Of a stretch of 64,000 bases of DNA, positions 1-35,092 are shown piece by piece (the stretch's first letter is position 1; every line of letters begins with the position of its first letter). The stretch spans positions 11,882,828-11,946,827 of the forward strand of contig OZ316894.1 of assembly GCA_973895155.1 (NCBI GenBank), written 5' to 3'. The notes under the pieces are model-generated. The model did not search any database and was not told the DNA's origin. It saw nothing but the letters and a program-made list of their open reading frames with translations. A program made the position numbers and the translations under genes. The stretch comes from Marsupella aquatica. Taxonomy: Eukaryota; Plantae; Marchantiophyta.

Positions 1-1693
1 TATCTCTTCGCCCTCCTCCAAAAAAGTGAGATGTCAATCTTCTCACCCAACTTTGGTGGCCAAATCTGTTTGAAAAAACGAGATTTCACTCTCGTTTGGA
101 AATCTTCAAAGTCCTCCTCTATGTCAAGGATCAGCGATGGCTTTGTCTTCTCAGACGAAGTAAGGATCCTTGCATCTGGAACAGTTGGGATCAACTCTGA
201 AATAATCTCAGACATGAGCGAAGAACAAATTGACTCAACCTGCTCCCAAACAGCCCATCAGTGAAGCCAAAGTTTTGTTTCGCTGTCCGAGAATTGACCA
301 GGGTGGAAGTACTTCTTGCGAAGCTCAGGTCTGCATTGTGCCTCGAGGAGTACACATCTGAGCTGGGGAGTCAACGATGAGACACCCGTAAATAGCCTCG
401 CACGATCGAGACCACATGACACATTACCCCTTCCTTTATCGTCTGTTCGTTGGGCCTCCTTCCTCTCATGTTCGCAGTAGTTGTGCATCTCAACACACTT
501 CTGGAAAAAGTCACCAAACTCAGGATTTAGGAGAGGTCCAATCTTTGGCACCTTCACATTCCAATCTGCCAGTTGCTCCTTCATCATGTCTTTGACTGCC
601 ATGTCTTGCGCAGCTTTTGAAAGAGGTTCTCCTTGCGCTTCTTTCAACTGAAACTTCTTCTTCAAATCTTCCGTCTGCGCTGCAATATTAGCAGTAGACA
701 GAATGTACGTGCAGGCATCGAGTGTCATGTTCTTCGAATACCAAGCCGGTTTCCTGATATTTGCCATCTTCTGCTGGAAAAGTTTGTAGTTGTCTGCATC
801 GATGATATCTTTGTATACAGAAAGGTCATTACTGAGAACCTTGTGGACTCTCTCTGCTTCAAGGACCCAAGAATTCTCAACGTGACATTGAGTCAACCTG
901 AGCAAAAGAAACAGGTCAGCGAGATCGCTAACAAGAGGAAATGAAAGAATTTTATATACAATTCACAGCTTGAAGGAAAAGAAACAAACCTATTCAGTGC
1001 ATGCATTGCCGACTCAATCTGCACGAATGAGTTCTTGTCACCCTTGAAAATTCGACAAACAACTCGAGGATGATATTTGACATCATGGGGATTCTCGTCC
1101 GCAAGCTGCATCCATGAGTACAGACGATGATTTCCATCGAAAACACAGAACATTTTGTCTTTCAAAATTTTGAAAGCTTCGTGAGAATCACATTCCCTCT
1201 CGAATTCTTCATTCTGAAGAATCCACATGTCATCCCACGACTCCCGAATCACATCCTCGCACATCTGGACAAGGCCATCTTCGCCGGTCATTTGGACATA
1301 AAATCGAGGCGCATCTTCGATGTATCCCTGCGTCCGGAATTCATTCTTGAGTGTCTCGATCGCAGTCGAGTTAGTTTGTAAGGACCGAACGATCTGCATG
1401 TTTCGCATTCTACAAAGGGGAATCCTCGGAGGAGCGAGCGGGAATCCAAATTTGTCATTTCCAAAAGGGAAAAGATGGCGATTGATGACAACAGAATAGG
1501 GTTCTGAAGCTCCAAGTTGAAACGTAGGATTCACAACATCTACTTGGTTCACCATCTTGGGCCTCCTCGGTGTTTTCAATCCCGCCTGGAGCGCCTTCTT
1601 GTTCACTGTAGACCTGGTCTCCCTTCGGCTTGACTCGACTGACTTGAACGATCCTATTGATGACAAGCTCTCGGGTGAAGACAATGGCTCCAT
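1..1693 (-). pseudogene. ParB/Srx-domain protein (element A), spliced, truncated by the window edge, one in-frame stop
   Basis: Exon 1 is 1693-990, with the ParB/Srx-like motif VFDGNHRLYSW. A GT-AG intron spans 989-898 (AATAG|GTTTGT...CTCAG|GTTG, giving NRLTQ). Exon 2 runs from 897. TGA at 258-260 interrupts WLH*WAVWEQVE, which aligns to WCHTWQTWNSVE in element B. The frame continues to RRAKRY at base 1, matching KRAKRY in B. Confidence 0.8.
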
Positions 1694-2368
1694 CAGGGGG
1701 TCCGTGAAGTGATAAGGGTATCAACAGGTCAAGGTCGAGGGCAACACGCTTTGCGAACATAAAAACACCCGAGAATCGATCTTCCAATCAAAGACATAAT
1801 CGTACCCTCGTCTGTTGCTTTCACCTGAATGCTGCGCCCGGTCGTGAAAAGAGATACAAATATTCTGTACGACTCTTCTCGCAATCATTTTTCAGACAAC
1901 GTCAGGTATACATGTACTTCCGGAAATACGAACCACCGAACTCACGACTGAAAGAAAAGTATCTAATGACAATGAGATAGGTGTCCAGTACTATACCGTA
2001 CCGTTGACATGTAGGTACCCGTTGACCAATTCCAACGGATATAAACGGTCACAATGGTCTCTTATGAGGAAATGTTTTTGCTAGCGACATCGCTAGCCAA
2101 AAAATGACCACTAAATACATTAACTCCTGAAGGGTGTTTTGTAAGGATTTGAACAATTTTACTTGGTTCATTGAGCTAGCGAGATCGCTAGCTTTATCAT
2201 TCCGCAAATAGAGTCATATAAGACAAAATAACGGTCAGATAACGGGAATAAGAGGCATTTATTAAATAAATACGTTGAGTCCAACACCTACACAAGCACC
2301 TTTCCTCATATGTATTTGGAGAAAGAAGAGAGCGAAGTATCTCACATTGTGGATTGCTGTAGACTGTA
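1694..2368. promoter_or_regulatory. Bidirectional promoter region of element A
   Basis: Lies between the divergent ATGs. Contains 2 palindromes and 6 AACGG/CCGTT (MYB/MSA-like) cores. Confidence 0.5.
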
Positions 2369-5300
2369 ATGTCCAAAACTTCCAGCATGTCTTCATTGGG
2401 ATCGAAGGTTGTGATCGAGAGAAAGACGACGGGTGATGTTGTTGTTCTGGATGTTCCGGAGAATACTATTATCTCTGTCAAGGAGTCTTTTCTCTCATCG
2501 AGGTTTGGGCTTTTGAAAGATGATTTCATCTGGAAGTTGTTCGTTCTTTACTCTCGGGATGGATCCAGAAGTCACGAGGTGTCGGATAATGGTTCAGGAA
2601 TATTGCCAGAAAGAGCTTGGGACCTAAAGGGTGGTTCAGATGTAGAGCTAGTCTCATGTAAGGATGACATTGCACATATCAATGTTTCCGATCCAGAATC
2701 CCCGACTCGACCGTCACCTGCAGTACCAGAAATTATTGACATCTCCCCTGAGAGTGTGGGTAGGGATGTCTCTTCTGTGTCGACAAAGTCTTCTGAGAAA
2801 TCCGTTTTTGAAGCAGTGAGTCAAAACGAGTTTCAATCTCAGCCAGTTCTTTATCGAGTTAGTGCATATGATGCCTTTCTCAATATTACTGGGTCAAGCG
2901 AGTTGGCAAATTTCCGCAGGGGAAACGATTGGAAGGAGATTCAAGTGCAGACTTTGCCCACTTCATACAACGGAAACTGCGTTTTTGAGCTTCCTCCGGT
3001 GGAAGGTCAATTTCGTCGAGGATATGGTCTTCAGGACATGGATAGGGATAATGACGGCTATCCATGGACGAGACTTCTCACAACTTCAGCTAATCTCAAA
3101 CCTCGCAATCACTGGTCTGTGTCAAAAGTCAGATGTGTCGGTGTACTTGAATGCCAAAATCTGGTCTGTAGAAAGTTGAAGCACACCGGTTCAAAAAATG
3201 ACTCTTCCTTCCGAGGAAAGGGACAATTTACTGAGCCGTTTCATCTTGGTGAGCTTGTGGAGGAAGGAGGGTTGGTGTGCGGATTCTGTGAGGAGAGGCC
3301 TCTCTGCATCCGTGAATGTCCGGCTAAGCTTTTGTACGTCTATCCTAAGCCGTCTCTTGAGTCAAATGTTGCGAAACATATGTCTCGATTGGCTGTTCAC
3401 ATGGGTTTCCATGACCACGTTGTTTGGAAGGGGAAATCTCGATTGGCAAAAAAGCAGGCGGAGGAGATAGTTTCTGGTGTTCATAAAGCGAATCCCGTGT
3501 GTACGCCAGGGCGTGTTCTTAACAAGTCTATAGGAAACCTGGTTTCTCTTTTGCATCCAGAGTCTTCTTCAGAACTATCAAAAGAAGAAGAGAGAGAGAT
3601 TTGGGAATCAATGAAGGTTGTGTCCACTGTTGAGAAATTCCAGGCCATATTCCGGAGCGTGAAAATGGATAACCCAAAAAAGGGTGAGTTGGATTCTCTT
3701 TGTGAGATGCAAGCATGGAATAATTTTCCTTACGTTCAGAGGTACCTTTTCCCTGGGCAGGGGAGCAAGACCGATAGGGCTCATATCTTCAAAATGAGTA
3801 CAAATGGCCCAGGTTATGGTGTCGATATTCTCAGGCAGATGAAGGCCATTTTTGTGGAAGTGAAACCCCCGAGAGGGTGGCTGACTTTCAGCGCCCATGT
3901 GTACGACCATAATTACAGGTCCCTTTGTACCATCTTCACTTGTGAGCTCCGTGCGGAGGACTCCTTATCTCTTGAAACCGCATGGAGATATATGATTGAA
4001 GTTGCCTCTGATCATGATGTGCATGACCCACTCATTGGAGGATTTATTGCCGATAATGCCGAGGCTGGATGGATCGCCATTCGAAATGTTTTTTTTGGAG
4101 GTGTCCGTCACCCACAGAAGGAGCATAGTGACGCCTTTCACTTTGCTCAATCTCTTCGTCGTCACACATTGGAGGGTATTCGGGAAGATCGCCATCGAGA
4201 GCACTATAAACTGTGGGAAAGGCTGAGAACAGCACCAACATATGTTCAGGCCTACCGTGTTGCTGACGAAATCCATCGTTGGTGGAAGGAAGGAAATTGC
4301 TATGCTGGGAAATTGAAGTCTCTCCAAGGATGGTTATCTTGGTGGGTCGTGAGGTGGAGGCAGTGGGGGAACTTCATCCGCGTTGTAAGTGTCCAATTTC
4401 ATTTATCTTTGACGTCATTGTTTTTGCTAGCGACCTCGCTAGCATATCAGGTCTGACTGGGGACTACTTTTTCGCAGACGCAAACCGCAATGGAGTCAGC
4501 CTTGATGCCAAATTGTACTGGAGCGGAATCAGTCCATGCATCCATGAGATCCTGCCAAATGAAGAAACTAGTGGGATTGATTGAAGCATGTGAGGTGGAC
4601 CAGAATCATGCTGCGGGGCAAATTGCTGCTTTTACTGCCTACAGTGAAGGTGTTCACAGAGGCCAGGGGCCGACCATTTTTGAATTAGCATATAGGAACG
4701 CCGATGCTATGGGATCCATGGATGCTTACGAAAAGGCAGCAAATCTTTTGCTTGAGTCTTCAGCTAAGTATGAATTCTATAGAACAGTTCCATTACATGG
4801 CGATCTCCGAACAACATCCACGAAGAGGAAAGGGAAAGCTTCAGCTGTAATCCACGAGAATGACTCCCACAGACATGACACGGTGTCACGCACAACAGCT
4901 TCTCCTTCAGGACTAAAAAGGCGTAATCTCTATCCTGAATTTCGCTTTGTCAATGTTTCGCAGACTTCTGCGGACCCAGAAGTAGCAAATAATACAACTT
5001 CGGCAACACCTGTCGGAGGTTGTTCTGCTGGAGTTATCCATATTTCAGATGATGATGGTGATGATGCAAGTCGTAATGTCAATGATACCATGAAGATGGG
5101 GACTCAACCTCAGTGTGATGTCGGGGATGACCATCGGGATGCCCCCCAAAGGATCCCTTCCATCCGAGAGGTTGATGTTTCTTATGGGACCTGGCATCTC
5201 AGGCGGAGCGGTAGAGGTGCTGGACCTGTTTGCAACGGGTCGGTTGACCGAAGCGTTTTTGGAAGAGATGAATGTAGAAATCTCATCAAGGAGACTGGAT

Positions 5301-6054
5301 GTAAGTCCGCACAAGGGGGAATTGTTGGAGTCGCCATTCACGGGTTGCGATTATCGTCTCCACATCGCCAGTTGTTGTACTTTTGTCCTAATAATAAGTG
5401 TCACAAGAGCCGAGGACGCAGAACTCTAGCTCAACTACCCCCCCCCCACCCAAGTCGCTCAAGGTTCAGCGTGGGACTTGCCTCTCCCATCCCGAGATAG
5501 AGTTTCTGCTGGGATTAGGATTCCAGATCAGTGGACTCTCCTATGTGGATGCAAATCAAGTTGGAGAGTTCCCGTCCCCCAATCGGGTCAACCTACGAAT
5601 TGATGTTAACTCATTCCCCGAACGAATTGATCTAACTAATGTGGACCGTCGGTTGAAAACCCGAAATGGTAAGGGTGCAAGACAGCGTTTCAGCAATACT
5701 CCAGAGTTGCTCAAGCGCATCGTTTCCGCTACACAAGAATACATGAGAGTTGTCGGAAATGAGAAGGTAACTACCGGAAATGGATGGGGTTGGAGATACT
5801 TGATCGCCACTCACGAGACTGATTCACAAGTTCCGCACACATATTGGGTGCAAATCTGTTGTTTCCCTTCGTGTTCTTGTGAAGACTTTTATAAGAGGCA
5901 TACACGAGGGAAACCATACATGTCTTGTAAACATCTGCTGTGGGTGTATTTAAACAAGTTTTCACTCAACCTAGAGAAGGATGACCTTGTCAAACAGCCA
6001 ATTCTGACTGTTGGGGAAGTGAGGAGTTTAATTCCGTTACAGATAGGGGACTAG
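2369..6054 (+). pseudogene. GCM-like Zn finger + Mutator-type DDE + SWIM transposase (element A), disrupted
   Basis: Exon 1 is 2369-4384, the intron is 4385-4477 (GTAAGT...TTCGCAG) and exon 2 starts at 4478. GCM-like C/H pattern: KVRCVGVLECQNLVC...CGFC...CPAK...HMGFHDH. DDE motifs: FIADNAEA, DAFHF, GAESVHASM. SWIM: CSCEDF...CKHLLW. The segment matching FDVMKR (first catalytic Asp in B) is missing near 3840-3880, and there is a frameshift in the poly-C run near 5438-5450. Confidence 0.8.
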
Positions 6055-6677
6055 TCGTTTATTGGAGATGCTAATTATAGGGTGGTGGGATGGATTACTC
6101 GAGTTTGTGGTTTCACAAATATCAATTTGTTTTCACCGAGTGAATCATAATGTTAGCGAGGTCCATAATGGTAACTTTTATGGTGTTTGAGTTTTCTGTT
6201 TACGTTTAGCGATCTCTCTAGTCTTAGGAAGTCTGCTACATCCTGACAGAAACATCCTACTTTCAGACGTGTCAACCTATCGACAAGTTTCTATAGAGTT
6301 CACGGTTTGATCATTAAAATGACGCCAGTTTTTGGCTAGCGAGATCGCTAGTCTGATCAACGGAATTTAGGACAGGATGTGACAGGATGTTTAGGGTTTA
6401 GGGAGGGAAGTTTCCCCTGAAGTTGTTGTGGTAATACTCGATCGAATTGATTTTCAAAGATGAACACAGTTCTATACTAGCGATATCGCTAGTCTGGGAA
6501 AGGTCCAACAGTGACTTCAAAATAAAAGTACTATGTGCGAAATGGCATTCCAGAGAAACACATAGAAATGAAAGGACCACCCAAACTTTACTTCTCATAC
6601 ATATTGAAAGTACATGAGGACATGCGGTTCGCTTGTAACTACAAAAATTTCAGTAAATCCACAACCTGACTCTACTC

Positions 6678-7106
6678 TCAGGGGCTGGACGCCTTCCATG
6701 CATCGGAGTCAGTGTCTGACTCAGAATCGTAATCCGAAGAGGCGAGGCATTCCTCGGTCCAGTAGTCATAGATCTCCCTGTCAATCCAATACTGATCCTC
6801 TTCTGCGAGCCTCTTCCTCTTCGATACAACCTCGCGCTGTGTGGTATCCACCTTTGGCTTCGGTGGAGACTTTGCTGCTGGAATTAACTTTGGAGGAGTA
6901 GGTGTTCTCCTCAATGATGATGACGATCCAACAGATTGACCAAGTTCGGTTTGGACACTGCTGCCTGAGGAGACCTTCATAGTCTCTGCATCGGGTTTCT
7001 GCTTCGGAGGAGAGTCATCTTCAAGCGGGCCATCTGTCGCCGGGTTGTAACAACGGATCTCAAGTCGCCATTTCCCCTGAGGAGGATTGCTTGGAACACC
7101 AGACAT
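6678..7106 (-). CDS. Small acidic/Ser-Pro-rich ORF inside element A, convergent on the transposase; probably has an upstream exon
   Basis: 142-aa ORF with a KRKR NLS-like run and an acidic tail. A CTGCAG acceptor lies just upstream (~7111) and a CAG|GTAAGC donor at ~7254. No recognisable domain. Confidence 0.35.
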   Translation of the reverse strand: MSGVPSNPPQGKWRLEIRCYNPATDGPLEDDSPPKQKPDAETMKVSSGSSVQTELGQSVGSSSSLRRTPTPPKLIPAAKSPPKPKVDTTQREVVSKRKRLAEEDQYWIDREIYDYWTEECLASSDYDSESDTDSDAWKASSP

Positions 7107-8685
7107 TTCTCTGCAGTTACGAAACCCAAACAGTGATTAAAGAGAACAGGATTCAACAAATGGAAACATTATCCACGATGTAATACGATGAATATCATGC
7201 CTTGTCGGAGAGTTCTTCCCTTAAAACAGCTCAGAGAATAGACCCGCGCTTACCTGAACTAGATCTGGAGAGTGTTGAGAACTTGGAACACTGATAGCAG
7301 TTCCGAATGAAAGAGATGAAGTCGGACGCGGTGGAAGTGATTGGGCGAATGATTTGGAAGACTGGTGGTTTTGGGCTAGCGGATTTGTTTAAGTGGACGG
7401 TTCGACGCCTTGGATTTGAGTCTGGTTCGAACGGTAAGTGTCTCGTTCACTTGCAAGTGACTTAATTAGTTTCCAAACGGCCTTAATCCTCCTTTCCTCG
7501 GTAGTAATGACACGTTGATTCTTTCCACGCGGGAATCGCGAAGTACTTTTTTGTTATTACTCTTCCTCGGGTGGGAATTTTCACATGTGGAAGCCTGTAC
7601 GTGGAGACCGTACCTCGTATGATTGGCTCAATGTGTTGGCATCATTAGACTAGCGATTTCGCTGGCCTGAAGATATGTCATTTTGATCTATTGCGTTCAC
7701 GGGACTAGAATCGTCCATGGGTAGCCGTCTATATTTATTGATCGAACAGGGTCTCCATGCTAGCGAGGAATATTCCAGACCTTTTTTGGGCCCCAATACA
7801 AGGTGACATCTTGCCCGTGCGAGCAAAAATTCTACTGTTTGCTCGCACGTTACAATTACCCGTGACAGATTATGCAGCTAGTGGTCTGTACAAAGGTGCG
7901 CGGACCGGAAAGTCACGGGAAGAATTTGGCAAACCATGGGACACAGAATTTCCCTCATTCCGATCGGATTCCACTGTTTGTTCATGGGGGTTGGGGATTG
8001 GGTCGGACCGAACCAGCAGCGGGGTCACATGAGGAAGCTGCACTCGTCGATTGCAATGAATGTGGTGGGAGTCCAGCAGGTTTGTCGGGTATAGCGACGG
8101 AGACAGCAAACAGGCAAACAGGAAATACTTTTCCTGTTTGCCTTATGCTGTTACCAGGAAAAAACATCTTGTACCAGGGGAAAGAACACACAATCAGCAG
8201 TTTAGAATTGTTGAAGTTGGAGTTAGTCCATTGCGGTGAGGGAGGATACCTTGTAATGAATTGCTGAACCACATAATAATTGAACCTTATATCCCAACAC
8301 AAACAAGGGGGAGCATACATAAAAATGTCAAGGAATGCGCACAAAATGGTAGGTCCCACCACAATCGGCAACAAAATATATGAAAATAATACAAAATCAA
8401 CGCAGCCCAAAACTTTATGTCATTATGTGGTCCAAAATAAAAGCGAACAACGGATTGACTAGCGCCTGGCGCTATCTTATCGTTATTCAAGGAAACAAAT
8501 AGTTGGCGTTGAGAACATAAATCACAACACAATGACATTTAACTGTGTAGCCTAGACAAAAAATTTACCAGCGCCTGGCGCTAACAAAACATGATGCGAC
8601 ATCAATAACACTATACCGTTGACATACGACAAAATCAATATAACCGTTTGGACCAATAATACAACCTACATCATCATGATTCATG

Positions 8686-11600
8686 CTATAAACGATGAGC
8701 ATTTTGCCTCTCTAATATGAGCCGAACCTCTCCAACAGTGAGAATTGGTTGGCTGGTCAATGTAGATTCCTCAACGTCTAGTTTGAAAACGGTAAGGAAA
8801 ATCCAATACAAATGTTTGCAAGGCATATATGGATGTTTCCGGGAATGTCGCCGGTAGAAATCCTCACACGAGCAAGTGGGGAAAATGCAAATTTGAACAA
8901 AGTAACAATTTGGCGTCCGCATATTTTCGTGCGTTTGCACCTTAAACTGTTTTCCCCATGCATTCCCAATCGCAACATCCCACTCTCCCTGAATGTACAT
9001 CGTCTGTTTTTTTGTAGACGCAATTCTGTTCATGTGACCCTGGGTAAGATTTGACCGAGGAACCGTATTCCTCCCATTCCGGCTTCGGAGACGAACATTG
9101 GGTTCGAGAAGATTCACATGTTCTGGAAAGATATTGACATTGATTCGAAGATCAAAATCTGACGGGGGTCTAGTTGTAAGTTCATTTCCGCGCACTAGGG
9201 AGATTCCGTTGTCAAGAAGATATTGCAGCTCGTCCTCCGAAACATTTGTCCATTTCAAAATGGGAAGAACATCAGGGAAAGGGGGAAAATTCAAGACACC
9301 TCGACGCAGGCGGCTTTTGTAACATGTATTGTTTGGGCAAAACCAAATCATTTCGGTTATGGGTTCCCCCCTGAAAATCCGTTGACCTTTGACAACAATT
9401 CCGATAACACCATGTGGTGAGGGAAATCCAACTTTTTTCACGCGATTGCGACACTCATCTCTTTCAGAATTACGGGAAAATGATCCGTTGCACTGAGGAC
9501 CAGCGCCAAATTTTGAAGTTCGACGTAATTGCCATGCAGCTAGAGCAACCTCCGTCTCACGGACAGGACACTCTTGTAACGGTTGCTGAAGCACGGAGGG
9601 AGCAGTCTGGGGAAGCCTCGTTGAACGCGTTCGGTCTTGAGCAGGAGGGGTATTGAAATCGACATCTTCTCCACCGCCCAATATGTCACTTCCAGACAGA
9701 TTAACAACAGGATCAACTTGAGGCGTGGGGCCAGGGATAGCATCAAACGCCATGCGATTAAGATTCTTCCTTTTCATCGATCTAGTATTGGGCGAGGTGA
9801 CAAGGATTTTATCATGCCTATGGGAGTCTTGTGGCGAGATATTCCCAGATGCATGTCCTTTCCTCTTCAAAGACTTGGTGACAACGTCTCCATTGAGAGG
9901 TGCACGTCTCTCCAAGTCAAACTCGGCAGCGTTGGACAGTAGCATATTCATTGCGTCTTCATACAACTTGGGGGAGCCTGCTTGGTCCGCTGATCGGAAA
10001 GTGAGTTCCCAAATTGTGGGACCTTTTCCTCTATGCAACCCTTTCCGATACGCAGTGTAAGCAGCAACCTGAGAAATAGCTCGATTTTGGTCCATTTCAC
10101 ATGCCTCAAAGAGCCCAACCTTTTTCTTCATTACCCATGCTTTCATACCTGCGTGCATGGACTCTGATCCTGTACAATTAGGAATCTTAGCCCCTTCTTC
10201 GACACTCTTGTTCTGCAATCACATAGAATAAAGTGTCTGTTATAGAACAAGAAAACACTAGCGTCGGGCGCTAGTGAAGTGGACTCTGTCCCTAGAAGTC
10301 AAAACTGGCACTATACATTAAGGGACAACTTATTTCGTCCTATTGTGTCATATGACAGTTTGAATAAATAATAGCGCCAGGCGCTAGTATTAAAGGATGC
10401 TATGGTATTGTAATATTTGAATATGGATACAAACATTTTGAAATGAGAATATAGCACTGCAATACCTAAAGAGCGGAAAGCAAAGTAAACTAACTTACCA
10501 AACGAATAAAATTTCCCCATTGTCTCCACCTGACGACCCACCATGAAATCCAACTCTGGAGCATCCGGAGCTTCCTGGGGACACAGTTACCCGACTGCCA
10601 CCACAAATCAATCTCCCTTGAAATTCTGTAAGCCTCTACAAATGTGGGGGCATTTCGCATCTTATCCCAAAGCCTACGATGCTCTGCTTGACTATCTTCA
10701 ATCACTCCTTCAATCGAATGGCGATGGAAGGCTTGGTAGAAATGGAATGCGTCAGTTCGCTCACGCTCTGGGTTTGGATGCCCTCCAAAAAAGACATTTC
10801 GGACTGCCAGCCAACTAGCTTGAGCATTGTCCGCCATGAATCCATGAATAATCGGATTTTCTAATCCATTCTCTTTGGACACCTCAATCATTAGTCTCCA
10901 AGCCTTCTCGAACGACTCTGTATCCTCTGCTTTTAGTTCGCAGGTGAATAAGGTACACAGAGCGCGATAGTTGTGATCATAAATATGCGCACTAAAAGTA
11001 ACCCAGTCTTTTGTAAGCCGTTTCATCACATCAAAACTTACCCAAGCACCTTTGAGACTTCCACCAGGTTGCATTTGTCTCAAAATATCGACGCCTGATC
11101 CATGGCCGATCGAAGTCATCTTGAATATGTGAGGACGGTCTTCTTGAGATCCTTGACCTGGTAGGAGGTACCTTTGGAGGAAAGGCATGTTGATATTTCT
11201 TTGATACCGAACAAGAAAATCTAGTTCACCTCGACCTTTCTGGTCCTGTCTAACACTACGAAAGAGGGACGCAAACTTCTGGGGTGTGGAAACTACCATG
11301 AGAGACTCAAATATCTCTGTTTCTTCAATATCTTGAATATCTTCCATACTTTCACACAAGGACTTTACAAAGGACCCTGTCGCCACATTTTTTACACCAG
11401 CAGGGGTGAAAATTGGATTTCCTTCCAATTTCTTTTTGATAACCTCCTCAACAATCTTCTCTGCGCTCTGAGAAAACACCTTTCTTGAAGGATGGTTGTG
11501 GATCCCCATATGAATTGCCAAGCGGGACATGTGAGTACAGGTTTCTGAGTCAACTAGAACCTGGGGGTACATGTAAAATAACCTTGCTGGACAGGATTGG

Positions 11601-12505
11601 ACACAAAACGGAACTTGATCACAAAATTGGCAAACAACTCCACCTTCGTCAATGAAGGAGCCAACACGATGTTGCCCGCCAAGTTTGGGGGTTCCACCCC
11701 AGGCCTTCTGGTTCCTCCTTTTCTTCCACTGAAAATAGTCGCAAGTATTATTCCTACACTCAATGGAACCAGTGCACGTTACTTTACCAAATTCCCAATA
11801 TTTCTTGGGATGAACATTAGCTGATGTAGGAAATATTCTGGTCCAGATGTAGCAATCCTTTGACCGGTCCATGTCGCGTAGACGTGACCCCTTCGAAAGA
11901 GCTGTCGTCGCAGGAGGCAACTCGAATACAATATTTCCATTGTATTTCTTTGGCAAACAGTCAACTTGTTCATGGAAGAAGTCCCTAGCCGCGATGAACC
12001 TCAAGATTTCACTGGAACCAGTTGACTTGAGAATGGTATCCATTGCACTTCTCCGATACACAATGGAATTTTTGGTAAAAACTGCTGTAACCTCTTGTTT
12101 AACAGGGGTAACCTCCTGTTTAACAACGGTGTGAGGGGATTTAGCACTACGCTCAGGCAAAGCAGGTCCATCATCGTCGCTATCTGAAAGCAGGACAACA
12201 TCAACAAAGGGTTTGGATGAAGATGGGAGATCGGATGCGACTGGTTTTTGAATGACAATAGAATACCGAATTCCTGCATTCAGGTGCCAAAAACGAATCC
12301 CGTCATCAACATCAAAAGAAGCAGTGAAATTAGACGCTTCATCTCCATTTCCCTCCTCCAAAATGTCCTCAATGTCGTTCAAATCCAAACCAAAGCGCCC
12401 ACAGAGATAATTCTCACTAACTTGCTTGTATACGTCATTGGCCGACAATGGAATGGATACAAGGTCACCGGTAGACGGACGCGTCAGAACGATTGACCTC
12501 GACAT
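8686..12505 (-). CDS. Apparently intact GCM-like/Mutator-type DDE/SWIM transposase (~1177 aa, 2 exons)
   Basis: Exon 1 is 12505-10499 (an alternative start lies at 12571). The intron is 10498-10213 (TTG|GTAAGT...TTGCAG|AAC) and exon 2 is 10212-8686. The candidate triad is D (VSFDVMKR), D (FMADNAQA) and E (GSESMHAGMK), with a D-x2-H motif (TDAFH). GCM-like: VTCTGSIECRNNTC...CQFC...CPAR...HMGIHNHP. SWIM: CSCEDF...PCKHLYW. Confidence 0.85.
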
Positions 12506-13465
12506 TTTAAGATCATCCAACCCAAAAACACTCAATTCACGATAATGAATGACGTCTTCGAATGTACACAATGGTATTCATAGTGAATAATCCATTTGTC
12601 AGAGCCGTTATAATACGACAGAAACACTACCGGTCAAAAGCACATCTGACACAATAAATGTTTTTTGTCATTATGTCAACGACATTTACACTAATGAGCC
12701 TAAGATGTCCGTTTCCAAAGAGCATAATCATGATAATTAAATCATGTTAATTGAGTAGCGCCCGGCGCTACTCAAACATCCTACCTTCAACATGGACCCA
12801 AAATGGTGAAATATATGAGTAGCGCCAGGCGCTACTCAAACACACACCGTAAATTATGGTATAAAACTGGAATGTTTTATCCGGGGTTTCAGAATAAATA
12901 CTAAATGTTTGTAGCTAATTTTTTTAATATTATCTAAAATATTACCAAAATGTGCCCATTTAATATTAGCGCCGGGCGCTAATCCAAAACGGTAATCATG
13001 ACATTCATTTATGGAAAAATATTCAAAAATTGTATTCATTTGGCTTTTTATTGTATACTTGAGGGTGAATGTTGACCTAACTTTGGGAAATTTTATGGTT
13101 TAAATTGTGATGATTTTGAGTAGCGCCTGGCGCTACTATTGACCAATATCAGATTTGAACTAGGAATATATATTAAATTCAACGAACTGTTCTTTAACGG
13201 TCATATTCAACGGTAACGTTAGGTCGCGTAACGTCGAAGATATGCCAACGGTATTCGAACAACTAATCCAGAATTGACAAGTGGCGCTCAAGAGATAGAT
13301 ATCAAAGTAGCAAGGGGATAGTTTAGAGATGATACTCTCCCCCCCTCCCTTGTCCACTGTATTTAGGTTCCGTTTCGGAGGTTCTTCGTGCAAGAATTCT
13401 CTAGAAGAAGTACGGTACAAATGAGGTACTCATCACGATCGTGAAGCACTTCGTGTCTGAGAAAC
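12506..13465. promoter_or_regulatory. Bidirectional promoter region of element B
   Basis: Lies between the divergent ATGs. AT-rich, with 4 palindromes and an AACGG cluster at 13196-13251. Confidence 0.5.
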
Positions 13466-16400
13466 ATGGACCTTCTCCCCACTACCTCGCATGGGTATAG
13501 TGTTAACGGGCAGGGAGAGCAGATCCATTCGCAGACATCCGAGTGCTCGTTTTCTAGATCTGTTTACAGTCGTCGAGTGACACGGTCTACAGCATCCCAA
13601 GCTCCCGAAACAGTCTCTGTAGTCACATTTCCGAAGAGCAGGAGAGCGAAGATGGACGATCTCGACACATATGCTGTGGAAGATCGAGGAGAAATGTCGC
13701 TGACGATGTCCGACGTTATCTCCAAGCATGTTATGGTGTTTGGCAAAGATTTTCGAGGGCACGACAAAGACCCCCCAAGGATTCCAATGTGCCGCTTGGT
13801 TCACATGGAAGTTGTCCGCACCTTACAGAAGGGAAGTCCTTCAATTGAAAAGTTGAAGGACTCTTTTCGTAGCACAGGATACAACTCAAAAATCGGAATG
13901 TTGTTCTATGTCCAGCCGACAGATTCGAATGGGAATGTCCAGACGTGTACTCCAGAAATTCGAGCTTCCTGGGACCCGATGTGGGTGGCCGAGAACGAGA
14001 AGTTTGAAGCTGAATGTGCGGCCGATCCAGACTTCATGGTGTTACAAGATAAGATGTTTTACGTTTTTTACGGTAACCATCAACTTTACGCATGGTCGAT
14101 CGTTACGAAAGAAAATCCGGAAGATATCAAGTATCACCCGCGTGTGCAATGTACTATCTTCAAGGGTGAAAAGGGATCTTTGATTGAGATTGAGGCGGCT
14201 ATGCATACTGTGAACCAGTAAGTCTCTCGTTGAATTTCACTTATCCTTATCTTTTATAGTGTAGTTTTTACTAGCGCCTGGCGCTATTGACTGACAAATT
14301 CTTCTGTAGACTTGGACAGGCCGTGGTGAAACCTTCCTGGATACTTGATGCAGACCGAATTAAGAGGATTTTGTCCAACGATCTAGAATACTACAAATCA
14401 ATCATCAATGGGGCAAACTTCAAGAAGTTTGGGCAGGTGATGCAGAAGACTCGAAAAGGATCGTGGTATTCCAAGAAAATGCCTCAAGAAGCACTTCTGT
14501 ATATCTTATGCAAGAATAAGATTAAATCCTATTCTCGACAATTCAAGATGGACATGGAGTCGGCTACCGCTCAGGGAAATCCTTGGTCTCAGGAAGAGAC
14601 ATCCAAACGACATGCGGTCATGATGAAAGAAGCAATGAAGGATTGAGCAATCAAGGTCTCAAAGATCACTCCCTTGTTGAGTCCAGAGTTTGAAGACTTC
14701 ATGACAACCTGTGCTGAGATGTATCCGATGACCGAGGTGAACAAACGCGAGAAGAAACCGGATGCGGTTGTCTGTACCATGGATCGTGCCAGGTTATTTA
14801 CAGCAGTCTCCGCACTCGACCCCAAATTGAGGAGCACTTTGTTAGTAGCGCATTGCACGCCAGAGCTCAGGAAGCAGTTCTTTCATCCACAAAGTGTTAG
14901 TGATGACCCTGTGAAGCAGTGGTGCCACACTTGGCAAACTTGGAATAGCGTGGAGGGAATTGCTATTGGTATGCTGCAGACTGCCCTCCAGCAAATCAGT
15001 GAAATAATTCCTTCCAATCGATTGGAGGAATGGAAGTGTGAGTCTTATGATTCACTCGTTGAAATAGTGTGCAATGATTTCAAAAAATTTGGGGATGCAG
15101 TGAAAGGTAAGTTTTTCAATACGATGTGGATGTCCAAGTACCCAGACAAGGAAGACTACACACTCAAGAATCAAAAGCGAGCGAAACGATATGTCTATCG
15201 TTTCTTCATGCACATGGAGATTGTGAAGCCTGACTGTTTTTGGGCTTACCCAGCCGCTTTCCAGAATTGGGTCATCTGCGCAGATGGAGACATTTTGGCC
15301 GAACTGTATTCGATGTATCCGGCTGAGGGTATACTTCCACCGAGGAAATTGTCAGAGTGGGAGAGAATTCACTGCCCTTGGTATCTTGACACCGACAGAT
15401 GGGATTCTCCTTTTGACGACACTAAGAAGGATGCTTTCCATAAACTGTCTAAATCCCAAGTTCCGAGACAATTTGTCTCCGACATGAAGGAAGGAATTGA
15501 GGGGGAAGTCAACTCGTCGACGACTGAGTTGCAAAAAAAATGCGAAACCACAGTGGTTCATGTTGATCGAAGCCGAAAACCAAGAGCCAAAGCCAAGGCG
15601 GATGCCCCTGTGGCAAGTGCTAGTGCCAAGTCTGGGAAAAAACGTAAGCTACACCTCCTTTTTCCGACTTCCTTCTTTGTTTTCTGTGCTTGACACCATT
15701 TTGGGTAGGTGGTCGAAAATCTGATGCCGCCACGGATGACACAAAAGTCGATGCAACACCAGAAGTCTCTGAGGCCAACACTGGTGCCAATCCAGACCCC
15801 ATCACCCCTGTTGAGAAGGGGAAGGTTATAGTTCCTGTGGATGCTACAAGCACAAAGAAGAAGAAGAAAAGGACCGTCGATGTCTGGGAATCTTCTCGAG
15901 ATAATGCTTCTGGGGCCGGTATCCAACGGGATGTGGGGACTTTCAAGACCAAACTCGGAAGACACTGTATGGTTGAATCAAGCTTGGCAGAATTTATTGA
16001 TAGTGCATTTAGTAAGGAAGAGAAGCCAGATTGGGTTTCAGACGCTGAGAAGTGGGGTAAGGATTTGATCAAATCGGGGTGTAGAGATAAAGGAATCATT
16101 CGAGGTGGGAAGGAACGATCATTTGGGGTGAATGCGGGTTTCATCTATCTCCCAACTGGTTTGAAACCCACAATTGTTGACCGTCGGGTCCCGAAATGGA
16201 ATGTCACAGATCACACAACAGCCGAATCATTCTTTCAGGCGATGGACCCTTTCCTTTCCGATGACGGAATGCTTGCTATCTTATACTCGGATGACCACGA
16301 TCAGATTTCCCAGGTCATTTCTGCATGTCAGCAATCCAAGAAGTTCATGTGCATCAATACGCACAACGTTTTCATGTCTGTCCCAATGTACAGATCCAAG

Positions 16401-17525
16401 ACAGATGTCCAGGTAAATATTCTCTCTCAGTATAGCTATACTAGCGCCCGGCGCTACTCTTTATTTCTTAGGAGGTCTTCTCTCATGAGTAAAAGATTTT
16501 TGAAATCCAGTTGGTTCGTCAACTTTTGCAGGTCTTCACTCTTAGACTGGACATATTTTGTCGAGTTTCTTTTAAAGGAAAGGTCCCAAAGGATCCAAGA
16601 TTCAAGCCATTATCTAGCGCTGAAGATCCTTCAATCTCGAACCTTATTGGGCTACAATCTTTGAAGGAAGATCATTGTCCTGAACTCCATTTTACTGGAA
16701 TTCCCGACTGCCGGTTGGTTTTATGCAAACTGTCCTTGAACTCTTTACAATACCTAAGGATATTGTAATTGATTGGACCGTCGGCTCAGGTAGTACGTTC
16801 ATTGCTGGGGATTACTCGGGCCGTTTTGTCATCGGGTTAGAAAATCGTCGGGAGTTTGTTGAGACCGCTTCGAGGATTTTTTTGGACCTCATTTCTCCAA
16901 AACCTTTGGAGACACAACCTCCCCCTCCTCAAATAACCGGACGAAAAAAGAAAGATAGACTTAGATCTGTCCTCAACTTTGATTCGGACGAAGATGATGG
17001 GACGCCAGAAGATGATGTTCCTGAGGATGTCAATGACGGCGGGAAAGAGAAAACCCGACATGATGGGTCAACGGAGGACAGTGAAGAGTCTTCCGAGTAA
17101 TTTTCGTCTCTCGTAAGCTCCTTTATCCTTTCAATTGTTGGCTAATCTTCAATTCCGCCAGTTCTATCGGTTAAGTACTTACTTCCTCTTTCTCTTCTAC
17201 TTCTCTTTTGAGCAGGTCAGAATGGAACCAAAGAAAATGGTTTCAACTCCGGAGGAAAGTGGCTCGAAATGTAATCATCACTCCCGAGAAGCCGTTTGTA
17301 TTGCCATCATACGCTGAGAACGTCGCGAGGAAGGTAGAGAAATTTAGAACTCTCTTCTGGGAAACAAAAGGACTTAGGCTTCTTAGGGGAGTAGACAGGA
17401 AGTTCATGAGGAACCCCTACGTAGATGATGTTTCTAGAAGCAAGTATATTGATGATGAGGCAGAGTCGACCGACAGATCTCATAGCTCCCAGAATGAGAG
17501 CTCAGAATCTGACTCTGAAGGGTAG
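13466..17525 (+). pseudogene. ParB/Srx domain + helical region + beta-class N6A/N4C DNA-methyltransferase-like fusion (5 exons), one stop and one frameshift
   Basis: Exons are 13466-14217, 14310-15643, 15709-16412, 16532-17096 and 17216-17525, joined by phase-compatible GT-AG introns. The ParB motif is VFYGNHQLYAW (FDGNHR in A). MTase motif X/I region: RLPVGFMQTVLELFTIPKDIVIDWTVGSGSTFIAGDYSGRFVIGLE. Motif IV-VI-like: GFIYLPTG...FLSDDGMLAILY. TGA at 14644-14646 replaces the Trp seen in A, and there is a frameshift near 16690. Confidence 0.75.
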
Positions 17526-20500
17526 CAATTTTCTCCTCTCTCAGGTCAAACTTCCTCCCAATTGTACGAGTATGCCCTTGGTTTTTGTTAGCGCCGGGCG
17601 CTATTGAATTTATTAAAAATGAATTGAGTTTTAGGGATGTTGCCCCTTCCTTTCAATGGTTAATGTGGTCTTGAGTACTGTCCTTTGTGTGGGTTCCTCG
17701 GCTTGGTTAATTGGCGCCCGCCGCTACCCAAAAAACACGTCGGAAGCTTCCGTTTGTTATTTGTCATTTCCGCCCTAGTGTCATTTGGCTTTCACTTGAA
17801 GACTGGTACCGACAAGAGGACCTGTAACGATAAATCCAAGCCCCTTATTGACATACTATTGTTTCTTTCAAAGTCCATTTCTCTCATTTTTCTCCTTCTC
17901 GATTCCATGGAAGGCCAATTTATCGACGGCCCACGAGAGCATATGTCAACTTCCGATTAGATGGTTTCCACCAAGATCCAGATTGTCAGGACTCTAGGAT
18001 TGATGATGAATGTCACTCTTCGAGATAGGACATTGTACGAGGAGGCACCCACCGGGAGTGTTAGCGCCTGGCGCTAGTTACAATTGTTCTGGAAACTTTA
18101 GTGTTCCTAAGTAGAAATATTTGTACACCGAGGACAATATGTTTCACTTAAATAAAAAATCTCGGGTTTCTTTTCTTTCAATTTCCCTTTAGAAGTTATG
18201 ACTCAGATACCTTGGTTAAGTCCTACTTCTGTGCTTTGATATTGAACTTAGACTATTATTAATGTTTGGTTTCTACTTGGATCTCAGCCTGAACATCAAT
18301 CCTAGGTTCTCGTGATTTTCTGCACAAAGAATTGGAAGCGGCCGGCTCTAGTATTCGGCATGTTTGGGCGATTAATGTGTCATTATTTTGGGTTTGAACG
18401 CCCGGCGCTAGTATTCGGCATGATGCGTTTGTGATTATTTTTCCTGTAGACTCCCGGCGCTAATATTCGGCATCGCATAATTATCAGTATTTTAGGAACG
18501 GATTTTTTTAATTTTGTCACAATACCAGGAGAAATGTGCTCCCAAAACAGGAAATTTTGCTGTTACCAGTTCCTGTTATATTTTGCTGTTTGCTGTTTAC
18601 TGCCTTTTGTAAACACCTCGGTTTGTCTCAGAGATACATGGAGTGGGAGAGGCAGAGCAAGATTATAGGTGGGCATGAAAAACAGCAGGATTCTAGGAAC
18701 TTTGGAAAGATTTCCATCCATTCTCATTCTCCCATAGAGGAAGTGATTCAGGGTGCCAATGTTTTGAAAAATACCAGGGCATCCAGCCAACCTGCCTCAC
18801 CTCAACTCTCTTCTTCACCGAGACTGTCCTCACCCAAGCTTAATGATGGCTCAAAGTGGCTGCGTGCTGTCTCCAGTCAAGCAAACACAGCAAATTTCAA
18901 GCAAGTTCATACACAGTAATCGAAGCATGTACTCCTTAATTAGTTTAGACGGGCCACGGAAAGATCTACCTCTTGTTGTACATGCCTGGGTAGAAGAAAA
19001 TCTCCAAAAATGCTTAAGCTAATTGAAACAATGACTGATGTTGAGGTCTAACATTCCTAGGCCCAATGAACAAAGGTGAGGCTGGAGGGTGATGATAGAT
19101 CCATACATATGATCCACTGGTTTGCTACTGTTTTTGCTGTGATAAACTTGGGATTGCGCCAATGCAAAACCATCAGGAAATGAACGATGGCCTCCTGCGA
19201 CAAGTTTAACCTGCGGCAAGTATAAGTGCTTGAATGCCATCGAGAAATTAATTGTGCTTCCAGGATCGACAATTCTTGGAGGGCAAAGAGTTTTGAATGT
19301 CTGCTCTGCATATGAACTACGTTGTCGAGCCCAAATCTGGCAAGTGCTTTAATCCAGCCAGTCATGTGAGTGAGCGTAATCCCCTGAGCTGTGATGGGAG
19401 TTGCAACCGGTCGATGTGCCACCCAAATTAAAAGCATTTCAAATTGGTGAACGTAGGATTCAAAAGCTTGTAGGATTCAAAATCTTCACAGGATTCAAAA
19501 GCTTCAATTGCGGGATTCAAAAGGCCAAGATCATTGCAATGCTCCTCCCTTGGCGCCAGTCCTCTCTGAGAAAGCTTTCATGCATTGGGTATCCGTATCG
19601 TACGTGCCGTTTCTTTTCAAGACTGGCAAGAACGAACAGACTTTTCCTTACAGGCAACTACGATGCAACTAATCTCAACCGTATGTTCTGAGACTGGGTA
19701 GCCAAGCAAAGAATCGGGCAGGTGCCAACTAGAACCTTTTTGACAAAGGCTTAAGGGCCTCATTTGTGTTCAAAATGCTTCTAATGATAGACGTTCAAAG
19801 AGGAAGCAAAACATTGCTCCAGCCCAAGAGAAAATTGCCCAAACAAAAAAGATGACCAAAAACAAAACCAAGGTAAGACAAATAATTACTTACCTTGGTA
19901 CTCGCTGGCCATAATATATAGGGACTAAACACATGAATGACTTTATACCCCGCTTTATACTTATTTCAGCCTTACAATTGTAGGATTCATCTGAACAAGC
20001 AGAGGATGTTGATGCTCAACCAGGACCAACGGGAGGCAACGCTATCGATACTGAGGGTACTGCCCTTCCACCGAATGTGTCTACATGCAATCCCATCAGG
20101 AGAGGTGACTGCACTGGTAGGGGTGACCACACCTCCTTTAATTGATTTTGGTGGCTATGATTCATTGGTAAGATACGTGTGTTTGCTAATTGCTTTTATA
20201 TGTGAATTTGCAGGAGTACTAGAAACCACCTGATGTGCAACCAGACTCATATGCAAGTAGACGTTGGACTAAGTTGATAGTTCATGGGCCATTGCGCAAA
20301 GTGAATTTGTAATCCCGGGGTTTGTATCACAAGAGGTCATTGTGCAGGAGATTGACATTTTGGCTTCCTTGCACGCATCAAAAATCACCAAGACTGTAGC
20401 CAGGCTGATGTTAGCTCTTTCCACAAGGCAATTGATATAATCATGAGTAATGTGGATGAAAATTAGGGTACAATACAATTAGCAATATCTGACGGATAGT

Positions 20501-20844: not shown

Positions 20845-21530
20845 ATGGACAAAACCAAAACCTGTTCAACATAGAACGATATATGTGTGTTTTGCATACA
20901 ATATGCATGTTGTATTCACATTCCCCCCATCTTTACAACGAAGACACCCCCCTGCCGAAGCCTTCCCAAATGGACAAAACTTATCGTATTATAACACAGA
21001 AATATGATTTGTCATGTATACGCTTTGCACGTTGTATTCAGATTTTACACTTAGAATATTTTTTTTGTCCCTCTGACTTTACGAAGACACACCCCCGCCG
21101 AAGGCTGCCCAAATGGACAAAACCTTTTGTATTTCAACATAGAAATATGATTTGTCATGTATACACTTTGCACGCTGTATTTAGATTTCGCACTTAGAAA
21201 AAAACTTTGTTCCTCCAACTTTACGAAGACGCCCCCCGCCGAAGCCTGCCCAAATGGACAAAACCTATAATTGTATATTACACACATATATGATTTGTCA
21301 TGTATACACTTTGTACGTTGTATTCGGATTTCACACTTAGAAAAAAACTTTGTCCCTCCGACTTTACGAAGACTCCCCCCGCCGAAGCCTGCCCAAATAA
21401 TCAAAACCTTTTGTTATTACAACACAAAGATATGATTTGTCATGTGTACACTTTGCACGTTGTATTCGGATTTCACACTCAGAATTTTGTCCCTCCGATT
21501 TTACAAAAATGCCCCCCCCCCCCGCCAAAG
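20845..21530. repeat. Tandem repeat, ~143-bp unit, ~4.5 copies
   Basis: The unit TTACGAAGAC-CCCCCGCCGAAG-CTGCCCAAATGGACAAAACC...ATGATTTGTCATGTATACACTTTGCACGTTGTATT recurs at about 20935, 21079, 21221, 21364 and 21500. Confidence 0.9.
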
Positions 21531-21831: not shown

Positions 21832-24779
21832 TAATAGCTTACGTAGGCAGATCAAGGAAAGAGGTGAGAGTAACATTTAATGATTTGTCTTTTATGTTTA
21901 TTTCATTTTATTTTATTTTTTCCACTTTGTTCAGCCTAATGTGACCAAACCCCCTTTGGTTCAGCATCATCATGACATAGATTACTGCACAGAGTTACGA
22001 TCAAATCCTGCAGCCAGGCATGTTGGACATTACTCAGTGGACAAGTCAGTGTATAAATCGCCCACACACTCTTAATGTGAAGCTACAGGCGCCTGCTAGT
22101 TTCTTTATGTGCATATGTTTCCTCCTGTATACGGTCAGCCTGTGCAAGTGGGTCACCATACGGCTGACAAAGTATCTCGTAAAGAAACACCAGTCGTCCT
22201 TAACTCTATACATAAGCTCTAAATTATTGGAATATCCAAAAACTATGATAGATGATCCCGATCTTTCTTTCTCGTGGTCTATCTACAAAATGTCAATCTT
22301 GCGGAAAGCCTCTCTAGCCATTTGATTATGGTGATATTGTTTCCTAATTATGAAATGGGCCCAAAGGTGTCAGTGTGCACCTTGATGTTTGTGCCCACCC
22401 CATCACTCTCCCAATAGCTTGCACACTCCTTGACATGCAGTTGCTAGGCCGGCTTGTCAATGCACAGGAGCTTTCGACTGCCTGGCCATCTCACTTATGA
22501 TTGTCAACACTTACTCTTCATTATATTTTGCAAGGCACAGAAGTCATTTGGGCTAGTTGGTCAATGAGTCACTAAGTAACTCATTCTGATGTACCAACCA
22601 TTTTTGGACACAAGCCAATCAGCATAAGTTTTAAATCATTGGAATATCTAAACGTCAGGAACTAGGAGAGCCACTATCAAAAGCAGTCTCAAGAATGGTA
22701 GCATTAGTTATGTTTGCATGTAGATTCAGACAAGCTTGGGGTAGATCATCTTTAATGTATGGAGGCAATTAGTTAGGATCGATGGATGTGGTGCCTTGCA
22801 TAAGTGCAGGCCACATGGAAGGACACAAGAGCACAACATGCATAATTCTATAGCTAGGGCTCATTGCATTATGGCTCTCACTATCAAAGATTCCAACGTT
22901 TTATTGGCACTTTAGAAACACTAGTGGATTGTACAGGATTAGGTTTAGGACTCATGTCATGCCTGTTTTTTAAGTGGATGACCCTGATCCACTCCCAGCC
23001 CAAGGCTGATCCTGGGATCCTTTGGGAGATTCCCCGTGCTCTGGTGCTGGGGTGTTCTGGTTGTTTGGGGTCTGTTTTTCTTCGAGCCTTACTCGTCTTT
23101 GCCACAAAGTCGTTGGAAAACATTGGGCACATGGCAGCCATTTTTTGTGGGTGAGAGTTCTCCAAGCACTCACTTTAAAAACATAGGCAAATGATACTCG
23201 GGATAATGTGTTTTAATCATTTCCATTAGCCACCACTGGATGCACTACAGGGGAGCAGTAGCCATAAAGTACTGCACAATAATTTTCAGAAGCTACTCTA
23301 TAATTGACTACCAGAACTCCATAACCAGAACTGAGCCTGTCTGTATAAAGTAGTCTTTACCTTGGCAAATTTTTAAAAACAAGATAAAATGGCTGGTGCT
23401 TGGTAGCTTTTGAATTTAAAAATAAAAAATAAGTCAGGAACTCATTAAAATGTACCTACCGGAGGCACAAAATAATGACTAATATGGCACACTATAGTAT
23501 GCAATCAGGCCTTTTCCTTTCCACAGCAAGTTTACAGAATATCATTTTGGTGGAAATTCTCCCTGACCTTTCCATTATGGTGGCATTCTTTCCCACCCGT
23601 GTCATGGACCTAAAGGCACCATTCCATTATGGTGGCATTATTTTCTGGCCGAATACTCCCTGGCCATTCCATATGCTGCCATTTTTTTGTAACCATAAGA
23701 TTGACCTATAGGCACCACCATGTGTACCTTGTCAGTGCCTCACCCGTCACTCTCCCCACAGCTTGCACACTACTCAATATCCAGTTGGGAATCTCTCAAT
23801 ATCCAGTTGGGAATCTGACCTCCACCCCCCCCCCCCCCCCACCTCACTCTGTTCAACAATGCCTGCACTCAACTCTAATGAGGCAATGCACAAGCACTGG
23901 GCTAGTTAGCTTATAGAATACTATATCAATCAGGCTCCTTATTCGCGTAGTAAGTAATGACTGCCAGGCAATACTTCTGTAGGAAGTAACAGTGAAGGGT
24001 GTAGTTAACGGATAGGTTCATAACACACCGAAGTTGTCATTACTAATCTCGCATGAGACCTGACCCCAAAGTTGTCGTAGCTGTTCTTTCATTTTGGATG
24101 CATCAATGGTGAAGCTGCTCTATCATCAAAGTTCCGTTCCAATGCTTAATCCATATACAGTAACTTCCCGTCTCATTTAGATAATCCATTAATGCTCTTC
24201 TCAACGTTCTTTCTGGAAAACAATCTTAGCTGAGCGAAGATTTAGACGAAATTCATCGTATTTTACAGCAGAAAAACCTAGAAAGAATCTTGCTCTCCTG
24301 AGAAGAATCAAAGGACAACCACAGCGGCTACAGCAGCCTTATGGAAATCGATCGATACAGAGCAATTGGCCCCAACTCGGAAATACTCTTTCAGGCTCAA
24401 AATTTGCATCTTCAGAAAATTTTCCTTTTGAAATTGTAACTATTGCACATGAATACTCCAGAATGCTGGCTCAATCAAATGGTGTACTGTCCTATTACTG
24501 TCCTATCAAAAGGGTGGAAAAATCAGGCCCTTACTTAGCCATCACCCGAGGTGGACCACTTCAGTGCACTCTTTGCACAGGAGTGCCAGCTCTGCTCTAC
24601 GATGTCCCAAGACTGCCCCTACCTGAAACGACTGTACCTATATCCTCAAAAATCCTTGGTTGACAAGCTCCAGACATTCCGTAAAAATCTCTGGGACTGC
24701 TGAAAATTCACTTAAACAGCAGACGCTCAAAGCCGGCATCCCTTTTTGCCAAAAGCGAAAAGTGCAGACAGCAAGGAAC

Positions 24780-35092
<10,313 letters not shown>

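Follow-up and report, generated by a model that had tools for sequence, protein, structure and literature searches.

The 64,000-nucleotide stretch of Marsupella aquatica DNA analyzed here (the window; assembly GCA_973895155.1, contig OZ316894.1, positions 11,882,828 to 11,946,827, forward strand) contains a probable Mutator-like transposable element that carries an accessory gene. We predict that this gene encodes a methyltransferase-like domain with the fold of prokaryote-type beta-class amino-methyltransferases, in which Y-L-P-T stands in place of the catalytic motif IV. The domain is probably a conserved pseudo-methyltransferase that selection maintains without canonical catalysis, because the S-adenosylmethionine (SAM) pocket is retained and the listed variants within the domain are mostly silent. 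The parts of the gene that encode the domain are as follows.

15709..16412, plus strand: exon 3, encoding a basic linker followed by the motif IV (N-terminal) half of the beta-class methyltransferase-like domain; AG/GT ends; 35 credible relatives among 37 phmmer matches
16146..16157, plus strand: Y-L-P-T in place of the catalytic (D/N/S)PP(Y/F/W); 0/34 sequences canonical; Y codon unvaried in 34 contigs; aligned with D-I-P-E of metagenome locus L009
16532..17096, plus strand: exon 4, the SAM-binding half and an acidic tail; Pfam family PF01555; exon 3-4 junction continuous in gene models of the liverwort Calypogeia
16759..16842, plus strand: SAM-binding block, from motif I (D-W-T-V-G-S-G) through the acidic residue of G-L-E; D, W, both G, and GLE kept in 6/6 aligned sequences

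The methyltransferase-like domain

The SAM-binding block comprises DIVIDWTVGSGSTFIAG (16759-16809) and GRFVIGLE (16819-16842), both located where an earlier note on this DNA, made from the letters alone, had placed them. That note had assigned the block to the N6/N4-methyltransferase pattern, and Pfam agrees: the open reading frame (ORF) at 16684-17097 matches N6_N4_Mtase (PF01555) with E 1.6e-8 and 35.2 bits against a cut-off of 26.7, covering profile positions 164-219 of 221. The best PDB sequence matches of this ORF are the beta-class enzymes M1.HpyAVI (E 1.5e-5), MboIIA, CcrM, and PvuII, and comparison of the block with a profile of phage and bacterial enzymes gives E 1.4e-8. The rotifer N4CMT chain is not among the PDB matches to the block, a result that leaves room for kinship.

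Motif IV lies upstream, within GFIYLPTG (16137-16160); between it and the SAM-binding block are an intron (16413-16531) and, at 16696, a frameshift of one base. The motif IV half alone has no Pfam match and no credible PDB sequence match. We place YLPT on the DPPY of active enzymes because L009 reads DLIIA-DIPE at this position, because the predicted fold of a homologue matches, and because a profile alignment, which is not itself significant, gives the same register. The earlier placement of GFIYLPTG at the DPPY position, in beta-class order, is therefore upheld. A mixed plant and bacterial alignment (A10) misaligned the motif IV half and was excluded.

The phmmer search was made with exon 3 as the query. 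Two of its matches (P0035 and P0036) were removed before alignment as repeat-driven, leaving 36 rows with the window included, 34 of which span motif IV (P0022 and P0034 do not). Position 1 of the motif is Y in 11 rows, A in 10, F in seven, C in three, S in two, and R in one; position 2 is L in 30 and position 3 is P in 33; position 4 is T in 24, N in five, and never Y, F, or W. The consensus is xLPT/N and the commonest variant is ALPT (10/34). No row has the canonical catalytic motif, down to about 25% identity, in a sample that is skewed to xLPT members by the YLPT sequence that seeded it, which counts against generalizing the motif. From this alignment, we hold it to be nearly certain that xLPT is a family-wide motif rather than decay of one copy.

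The earlier note had left a choice between a catalytically dead DNA reader and a decayed copy of an active writer of N4-methylcytosine (4mC) or N6-methyladenine (6mA), with Y as a mutated D. The absence of canonical motifs strengthens the catalytically dead branch. A decayed canonical writer whose Y is a private mutation is scarcely credible: it is consistent with decay elsewhere in the window copy (a stop at 14644, the frameshift at 16696, and YGNHQ for DGNHR), but Y, L, and P are unchanged in 34 contigs from four sequencing runs, in which the listed changes at the motif are silent or minor T and G substitutions, and none of the 34 family sequences is canonical.

Locus L009 has its intron at the equal position and matches the family profile with E 9e-14. 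It possibly represents an intermediate between DPPY and xLPT, and its sequence makes it the best candidate for residual activity. The methyltransferase-like parts of L009 are at 494-847 and 998-1201.

With high confidence, we predict a beta-class amino-methyltransferase (Rossmann) fold with motif IV before motif I, as modeled on homologues rather than on the joined protein of the window. For homologue P0042, the ESM Atlas model of residues 180-460 matched N6_N4_Mtase clusters in 10/10 rows shown, with template modeling (TM) scores of 0.62-0.69 over 208-237 residues, so that a Rossmann methyltransferase, which the earlier note had expected, is what structure prediction returns. Two of the P0042 cluster matches shown are mostly viral clusters, most of whose members also have ParB_N. 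The AlphaFold2 (AF2) model of homologue P0015 has CcrM as its best Foldseek match (E 2.2e-4), and VIA aligned it to the N-terminal parts of MboIIA (1-136), HpyAVI (1-148), and M.BceJIV (30-167) with Z of about 6. A search with profile A2 found no PDB chain.

Twelve of the 24 listed coding variants are silent, as are 7 of the 8 inside the methyltransferase-like domain; these counts come from the 40 best-supported of 1040 rows, which weakens them as evidence of selection. In rotifer N4CMT, replacement of SPPY by APPA is reported to abolish 4mC activity (PMC8885841), and ALPT in the present family has lost the same two residues as that mutant. Judging from the motif, the domain probably performs no canonical amino-methylation.

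Alternatively, the domain could be an active methyltransferase whose chemistry or substrate has changed. Through the SAM pocket that it retains, the carbonyl of the conserved proline, and the tryptophans nearby, it would mark an RNA, a protein, or the DNA of the element itself (the CCNGG core of the palindromes described below is one example). The invariance of D-W-x-x-G-x-G and GLE in six of six aligned sequences, the open frames with their mostly silent variants, and the existence of a sister branch with DIPE all speak for such an enzyme, as do algal accessory proteins of like design that are described as predicted writers (PMC12477816). Nevertheless we judge it unlikely, given that six different residues (Y, A, F, C, S, and R) occur at position 1, that position 4 is never aromatic, and that the same double loss killed N4CMT.

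Other observations tell against a pseudo-methyltransferase with this fold. An active enzyme would also retain the SAM pocket, relative L001 has a degenerate glycine loop, and L009 is, by its sequence, a sister branch that retains the D of motif IV. The P0015 model is confident only at about residues 30-150, so that the N-terminal half alone is folded, and its top VIA match is the tRNA methyltransferase Trm14 (Z 9.2, 82 residues, root-mean-square deviation 3.1).

The accessory gene and its carrier element

The accessory gene is modeled with five exons (13652-14217, 14310-15643, 15709-16412, 16532-17096, and 17216-17525) and four introns, all GT-AG. The model has 1160 codons with the frameshift read as N, and we infer that the exons form one protein of about 1159 amino acids. 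In addition to exons 3 and 4, it includes the following.

13652..14217, plus strand: exon 1, putative ParB/Srx-like domain; YGNHQ at 14069-14083; 52% identical to the exon of a neighboring sister element
14310..15643, plus strand: exon 2, middle region; TGA at 14644; the end of the exon is homologous to the P0042 start (E 3e-11)
17216..17525, plus strand: exon 5, conserved C-terminal segment; 46% identical over 101 amino acids to the C-terminus of P0042

The window copy of this gene is broken by two lesions. One is the premature TGA at 14644 (codon 301, in exon 2), where the sister element encodes W, and the other is the frameshift in exon 4, where one base is missing at 16696. The frameshift is private to the window copy because contigs from 4/4 runs carry one additional base behind 16696; some contigs of runs X1 and X4 are without it. 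Run X1 alone has 1923 contigs that align to the accessory gene, as expected of a multicopy family.

In Calypogeia fissa, one predicted protein (gene model P0042, CAM6082771.1) unites segments homologous to the end of exon 2, to exons 3 and 4, and to exon 5, and two further Calypogeia gene models, also predictions, span the exon 3-4 junction. All named relatives come from this one liverwort, which, together with the SHIPPO repeat gene and the zf-RVT LINE of the window, points to a seed-free land plant as the likely host. The joining of exon 1 to the rest is supported because the junction is in frame and the sister element has the same intron. Searches for longer, full-length fusions found nothing, which is weak evidence. 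None of the contig joints (15 of 16 shown) matched a predicted intron, in runs mostly of unstated type.

Exon 1 has a motif that reads DGNHR in the sister element and YGNHQ in the window copy. The ParB label that the earlier note gave to this exon is retained as a lead, drawn from the DGNHR-like motif; confirmation from libraries, profiles, and fold prediction did not follow. Phage tblastn with exon 1 likewise gave no ParB confirmation, and the sister exon matched one unnamed PHROG family (E 0.006).

The earlier note had also placed the domain on a plant-type transposon, and the back-to-back transposase bears this out. By sequence, the carrier element is likely Mutator-type. Its main features, and those of the sister element, are as follows.

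8689..12577, minus strand: Mutator-like transposase gene in two ORFs (12577-10493 and 10218-8689), divergent from the accessory gene
8460..18076, no strand: palindrome TAGCGCCNGGCGCTA, 12 copies (8460, 8569, 10259, 10372, 12756, 12820, 12967, 13121, 14272, 16442, 17589, 18062), in introns, the shared promoter region, and 3' flanks
1..7700, no strand: sister element, its genes likewise arranged back to back; accessory exons 261-1720 on the minus strand, transposase 2363-6051 on the plus strand; 52% and 43% protein identity

We located candidate catalytic residues of the transposase at D (11032), D (10831), DxxH (10753), and E (10164), and a SWIM-like finger at 8874, with patterns that we take to be those of such transposases. 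These motifs are found in both elements, except that the region of the first D is missing in the sister. A C/D-x-x-H (CH) motif is described among the features of Mutator-like elements (MULEs) (PMC5225508). The transposase has no Pfam MULE match and no PDB match, and its SWIM match (E 0.073) is below the cut-off. The search for terminal inverted repeats yielded just short shared end-like motifs near 8100-8160 and 18545-18630, and no convincing ends or target site duplication (8-10 bp) were found around the element. The two regions share ACAGCAAACA in inverted order and AAACAGGAAA..TT and GCTGTTACCAG in direct order, and may mark the element ends. No relative emerged when viral and prokaryote collections were scanned for loci resembling exon 1 or the transposase, and metagenomes for loci resembling exon 3, so the link between transposase and accessory gene is known only from the two elements of the window.

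The 15-bp palindrome TAGCGCCNGGCGCTA has 12 matches in the element and 0 in 100 shuffles. Exons hold none of the 12 copies, although they take up 73% of the span (a probability of about 2e-6 for the ten inner copies). The sister element, which the window start cuts before its methyltransferase-like exons, has its own palindrome, CTAGCGANNTCGCTAG, with 6 matches against a mean of 0.01 in shuffles; one match is inside the transposase intron, and a looser copy is in the first accessory intron. The palindromes of the two elements have outer arms in common, differ in the core, and occupy equivalent places. These family-specific motifs are confined to non-coding element DNA, as in VANC-type systems. 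An active enzyme could find a target in CCNGG, present in 11/12 palindromes of the main element, but the core in the sister is GANNTC, not CCNGG.

The ratio of observed to expected CpG is 0.78-0.81 for the two elements, compared with 0.21-0.64 for five segments elsewhere in the window. The high ratio fits protection or youth of the elements, and element age confounds the comparison.

Further features were seen in and beside the two elements. At 18339-18474, near the right side of the main element, there are three 24-bp repeats with half of the palindrome (CCCGGCGCTAGTATTCGGCAT), 52-60 bp apart. Compared with the transposase of the main element, that of the sister has a gap of about 10 residues at about 3840-3870, where the first candidate catalytic D would lie, and looks damaged. 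The sister element also has a further ORF fragment at 6681-7136 (minus strand, extending upstream to about 7700), convergent with the transposase and with an acidic C-terminus. It has no Pfam match above the cut-off, and no counterpart was seen in the main element.

Proposed function and related systems

On balance we lean towards an accessory protein that recognizes the palindromes of its element and shields the element from silencing, with a SAM-bound pseudo-methyltransferase that grips DNA or scaffolds. Whether the accessory protein acts on the palindromes we regard as evenly balanced. In this scheme, either a ParB-like front end or the middle region would be loaded at the palindromes, in the manner of ParB at parS. 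SAM or S-adenosylhomocysteine (SAH) would stay bound in the pseudo-methyltransferase, which would grip the DNA or a flipped base, or would act as a dimer scaffold, and the element would thereby be protected from host silencing, much as VANDAL is by VANC. The likely source would be a phage-type ParB-methyltransferase fusion that lost catalysis stepwise, from DPPY through a DIPE-like state to xLPT.

Several results count against this explanation. Pfam, NCBIfam, PDB, and profile comparison (hhalign probability 0.3%) all failed to match exon 1 to ParB, its AF2 model failed (predicted local distance difference test, pLDDT, 35), and none of the records found contains exon 1 together with the methyltransferase exons. 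In run X1, 244 of the 587 changed places are C>T or G>A, and by this pattern the element copies do not seem to escape methylation-type decay. In addition, the transposase could be the palindrome binder.

If the transposase binds the palindromes, the accessory pseudo-methyltransferase would be a cofactor, either a scaffold of the transposition complex or a decoy for host proteins, as proposed for the inactive domain of DIRS1. We consider this improbable. It would accord with the Cys/His-rich, zinc-finger-like N-terminus of the transposase, with the unconfirmed ParB label of exon 1, with the AtMu1 transposase, which is reported to switch on its own copies sequence-specifically (10.64898/2026.08.24.746577), and with the inactive methyltransferase domains described in DIRS1 retrotransposons (PMC4738411). 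However, the palindromes are spread over introns and the promoter region rather than clustered at the ends, and red algal ParB-type accessory genes are described as adjoining inverted-repeat arrays (10.1101/2025.02.11.637652).

The palindrome-recognizing, shielding accessory protein that we prefer has a close described counterpart in Ectocarpus, where Sola1-1_Ec32 has a 1104-amino acid ParB-like plus N4C/N6A methyltransferase gene opposite its transposase, and green and red algal cases are cited (PMC12477816). The liverwort gene, compared with it by description rather than by sequence, is alike in its place opposite the transposase, in size (about 1159 amino acids), in the putative ParB-like-then-methyltransferase order, and in the proposed action on its own element. 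It differs in its named relatives, which are from a liverwort, in its carrier, which looks Mutator-like, and in the family-wide absence of the catalytic motif, the algal protein being a predicted writer.

Plavaka elements of Bostrychia are described with PAG2 (PF01555 and SET) and PAG3 (ParB and 2-oxoglutarate oxygenase) together with inverted-repeat arrays (10.1101/2025.02.11.637652). They carry PF01555 and ParB-like domains as transposon cargo, as is proposed for the liverwort element, their arrays are proposed ParB sites, and homologues are reported on Mutator elements of Chondrus. The Plavaka system has two genes with SET or oxygenase partners and tandem arrays, whereas the liverwort element has one gene and dispersed single palindromes.

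VANC21 is reported to bind family-specific motifs in introns and intergenic DNA (PMC5735166). Like VANC of the Arabidopsis VANDAL MULEs, the liverwort gene is an accessory gene on a likely Mutator-type element with short family-specific non-coding motifs. The motifs are 15-16 bp palindromes here and 8-9 bp motifs borne on tandem repeats in VANDAL, we found no sequence link, and demethylation by VANC has been shown, whereas the liverwort system is known from sequence alone.

The DIRS1 domain and METTL14 also keep an amino-methyltransferase fold without the catalytic residues, and that of DIRS1 is likewise on a mobile element. It is PCIF1-derived and part of a retroelement polyprotein (PMC4738411), unlike the prokaryote beta-class-like domain here, which is on a DNA transposon and keeps the SAM-pocket motifs.

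Bdelloid N4CMT (PMC8885841) and Marchantia MpDN4MT1, whose motif is given as TSPPY (10.1101/2021.02.12.428880), share the permuted prokaryotic-type beta-class N6_N4_Mtase fold in a eukaryote. The kinship with these N4C enzymes that the earlier note drew holds as an analogy of fold and fails at the motif: they are active host enzymes with (T)SPPY, whereas the liverwort domain has YLPT, has S at position 1 in 2/34 rows, and belongs to a multicopy transposon.

Phage fusions of ParB_N and N6_N4_Mtase (L011-L014) resemble the liverwort protein in the proposed domain order, the PGD-V-I-D-W variant of motif I, and the fold match. These loci were fetched by the DW pattern, and their closeness is no evidence of origin. 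They differ in having DPPY (4/4) and in being without introns and the long middle region.

New here, as read from the sequence, is a variant of the ParB-methyltransferase transposon accessory gene without an active N6/N4 catalytic motif. Literature searches of main texts, with supplements and Iyer et al. 2011 outside the scope, found no land-plant description of the accessory family. The surprise is limited, as the window copy is broken and the ParB plus methylase design has already been published for algae. A wider proposal, which we find doubtful, is that seed-free land plants may carry an anti-silencing system built from phage parts: a ParB-type clamp on parS-like palindromes that are rewritten for each element family, plus a SAM-binding pseudo-methyltransferase that reads or shields cytosines. 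If true, VANC would have a retargetable counterpart of independent origin, in which a DNA methyltransferase has become a methylation shield. The locus gives candidate binding sites, and its two neighboring elements with different palindromes are a built-in test of specificity. Such PF01555 matches should not be counted as plant 4mC or 6mA writers.

Other features of the window

The remainder of the window includes repeats, fragments of other elements, and one long gene.

20924-21520: tandem repeat, unit of about 143 bp, four copies
23037-23073 and 26979-27015: inverted repeat of 37 bp, its arms 97% complementary and separated by 3.9 kb; it may mark the ends of another element
36630-39479, minus strand: remnant of a long interspersed nuclear element (LINE) with RVT_1 and zf-RVT
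56532-56942, minus strand: integrase fragment of a long terminal repeat (LTR) element
44082-50792, plus strand: single 2237-amino acid ORF with 57 SHIPPO (sperm-tail PG-rich) repeats; observed to expected CpG of 0.21

The last of these is unusually long for the SHIPPO family.

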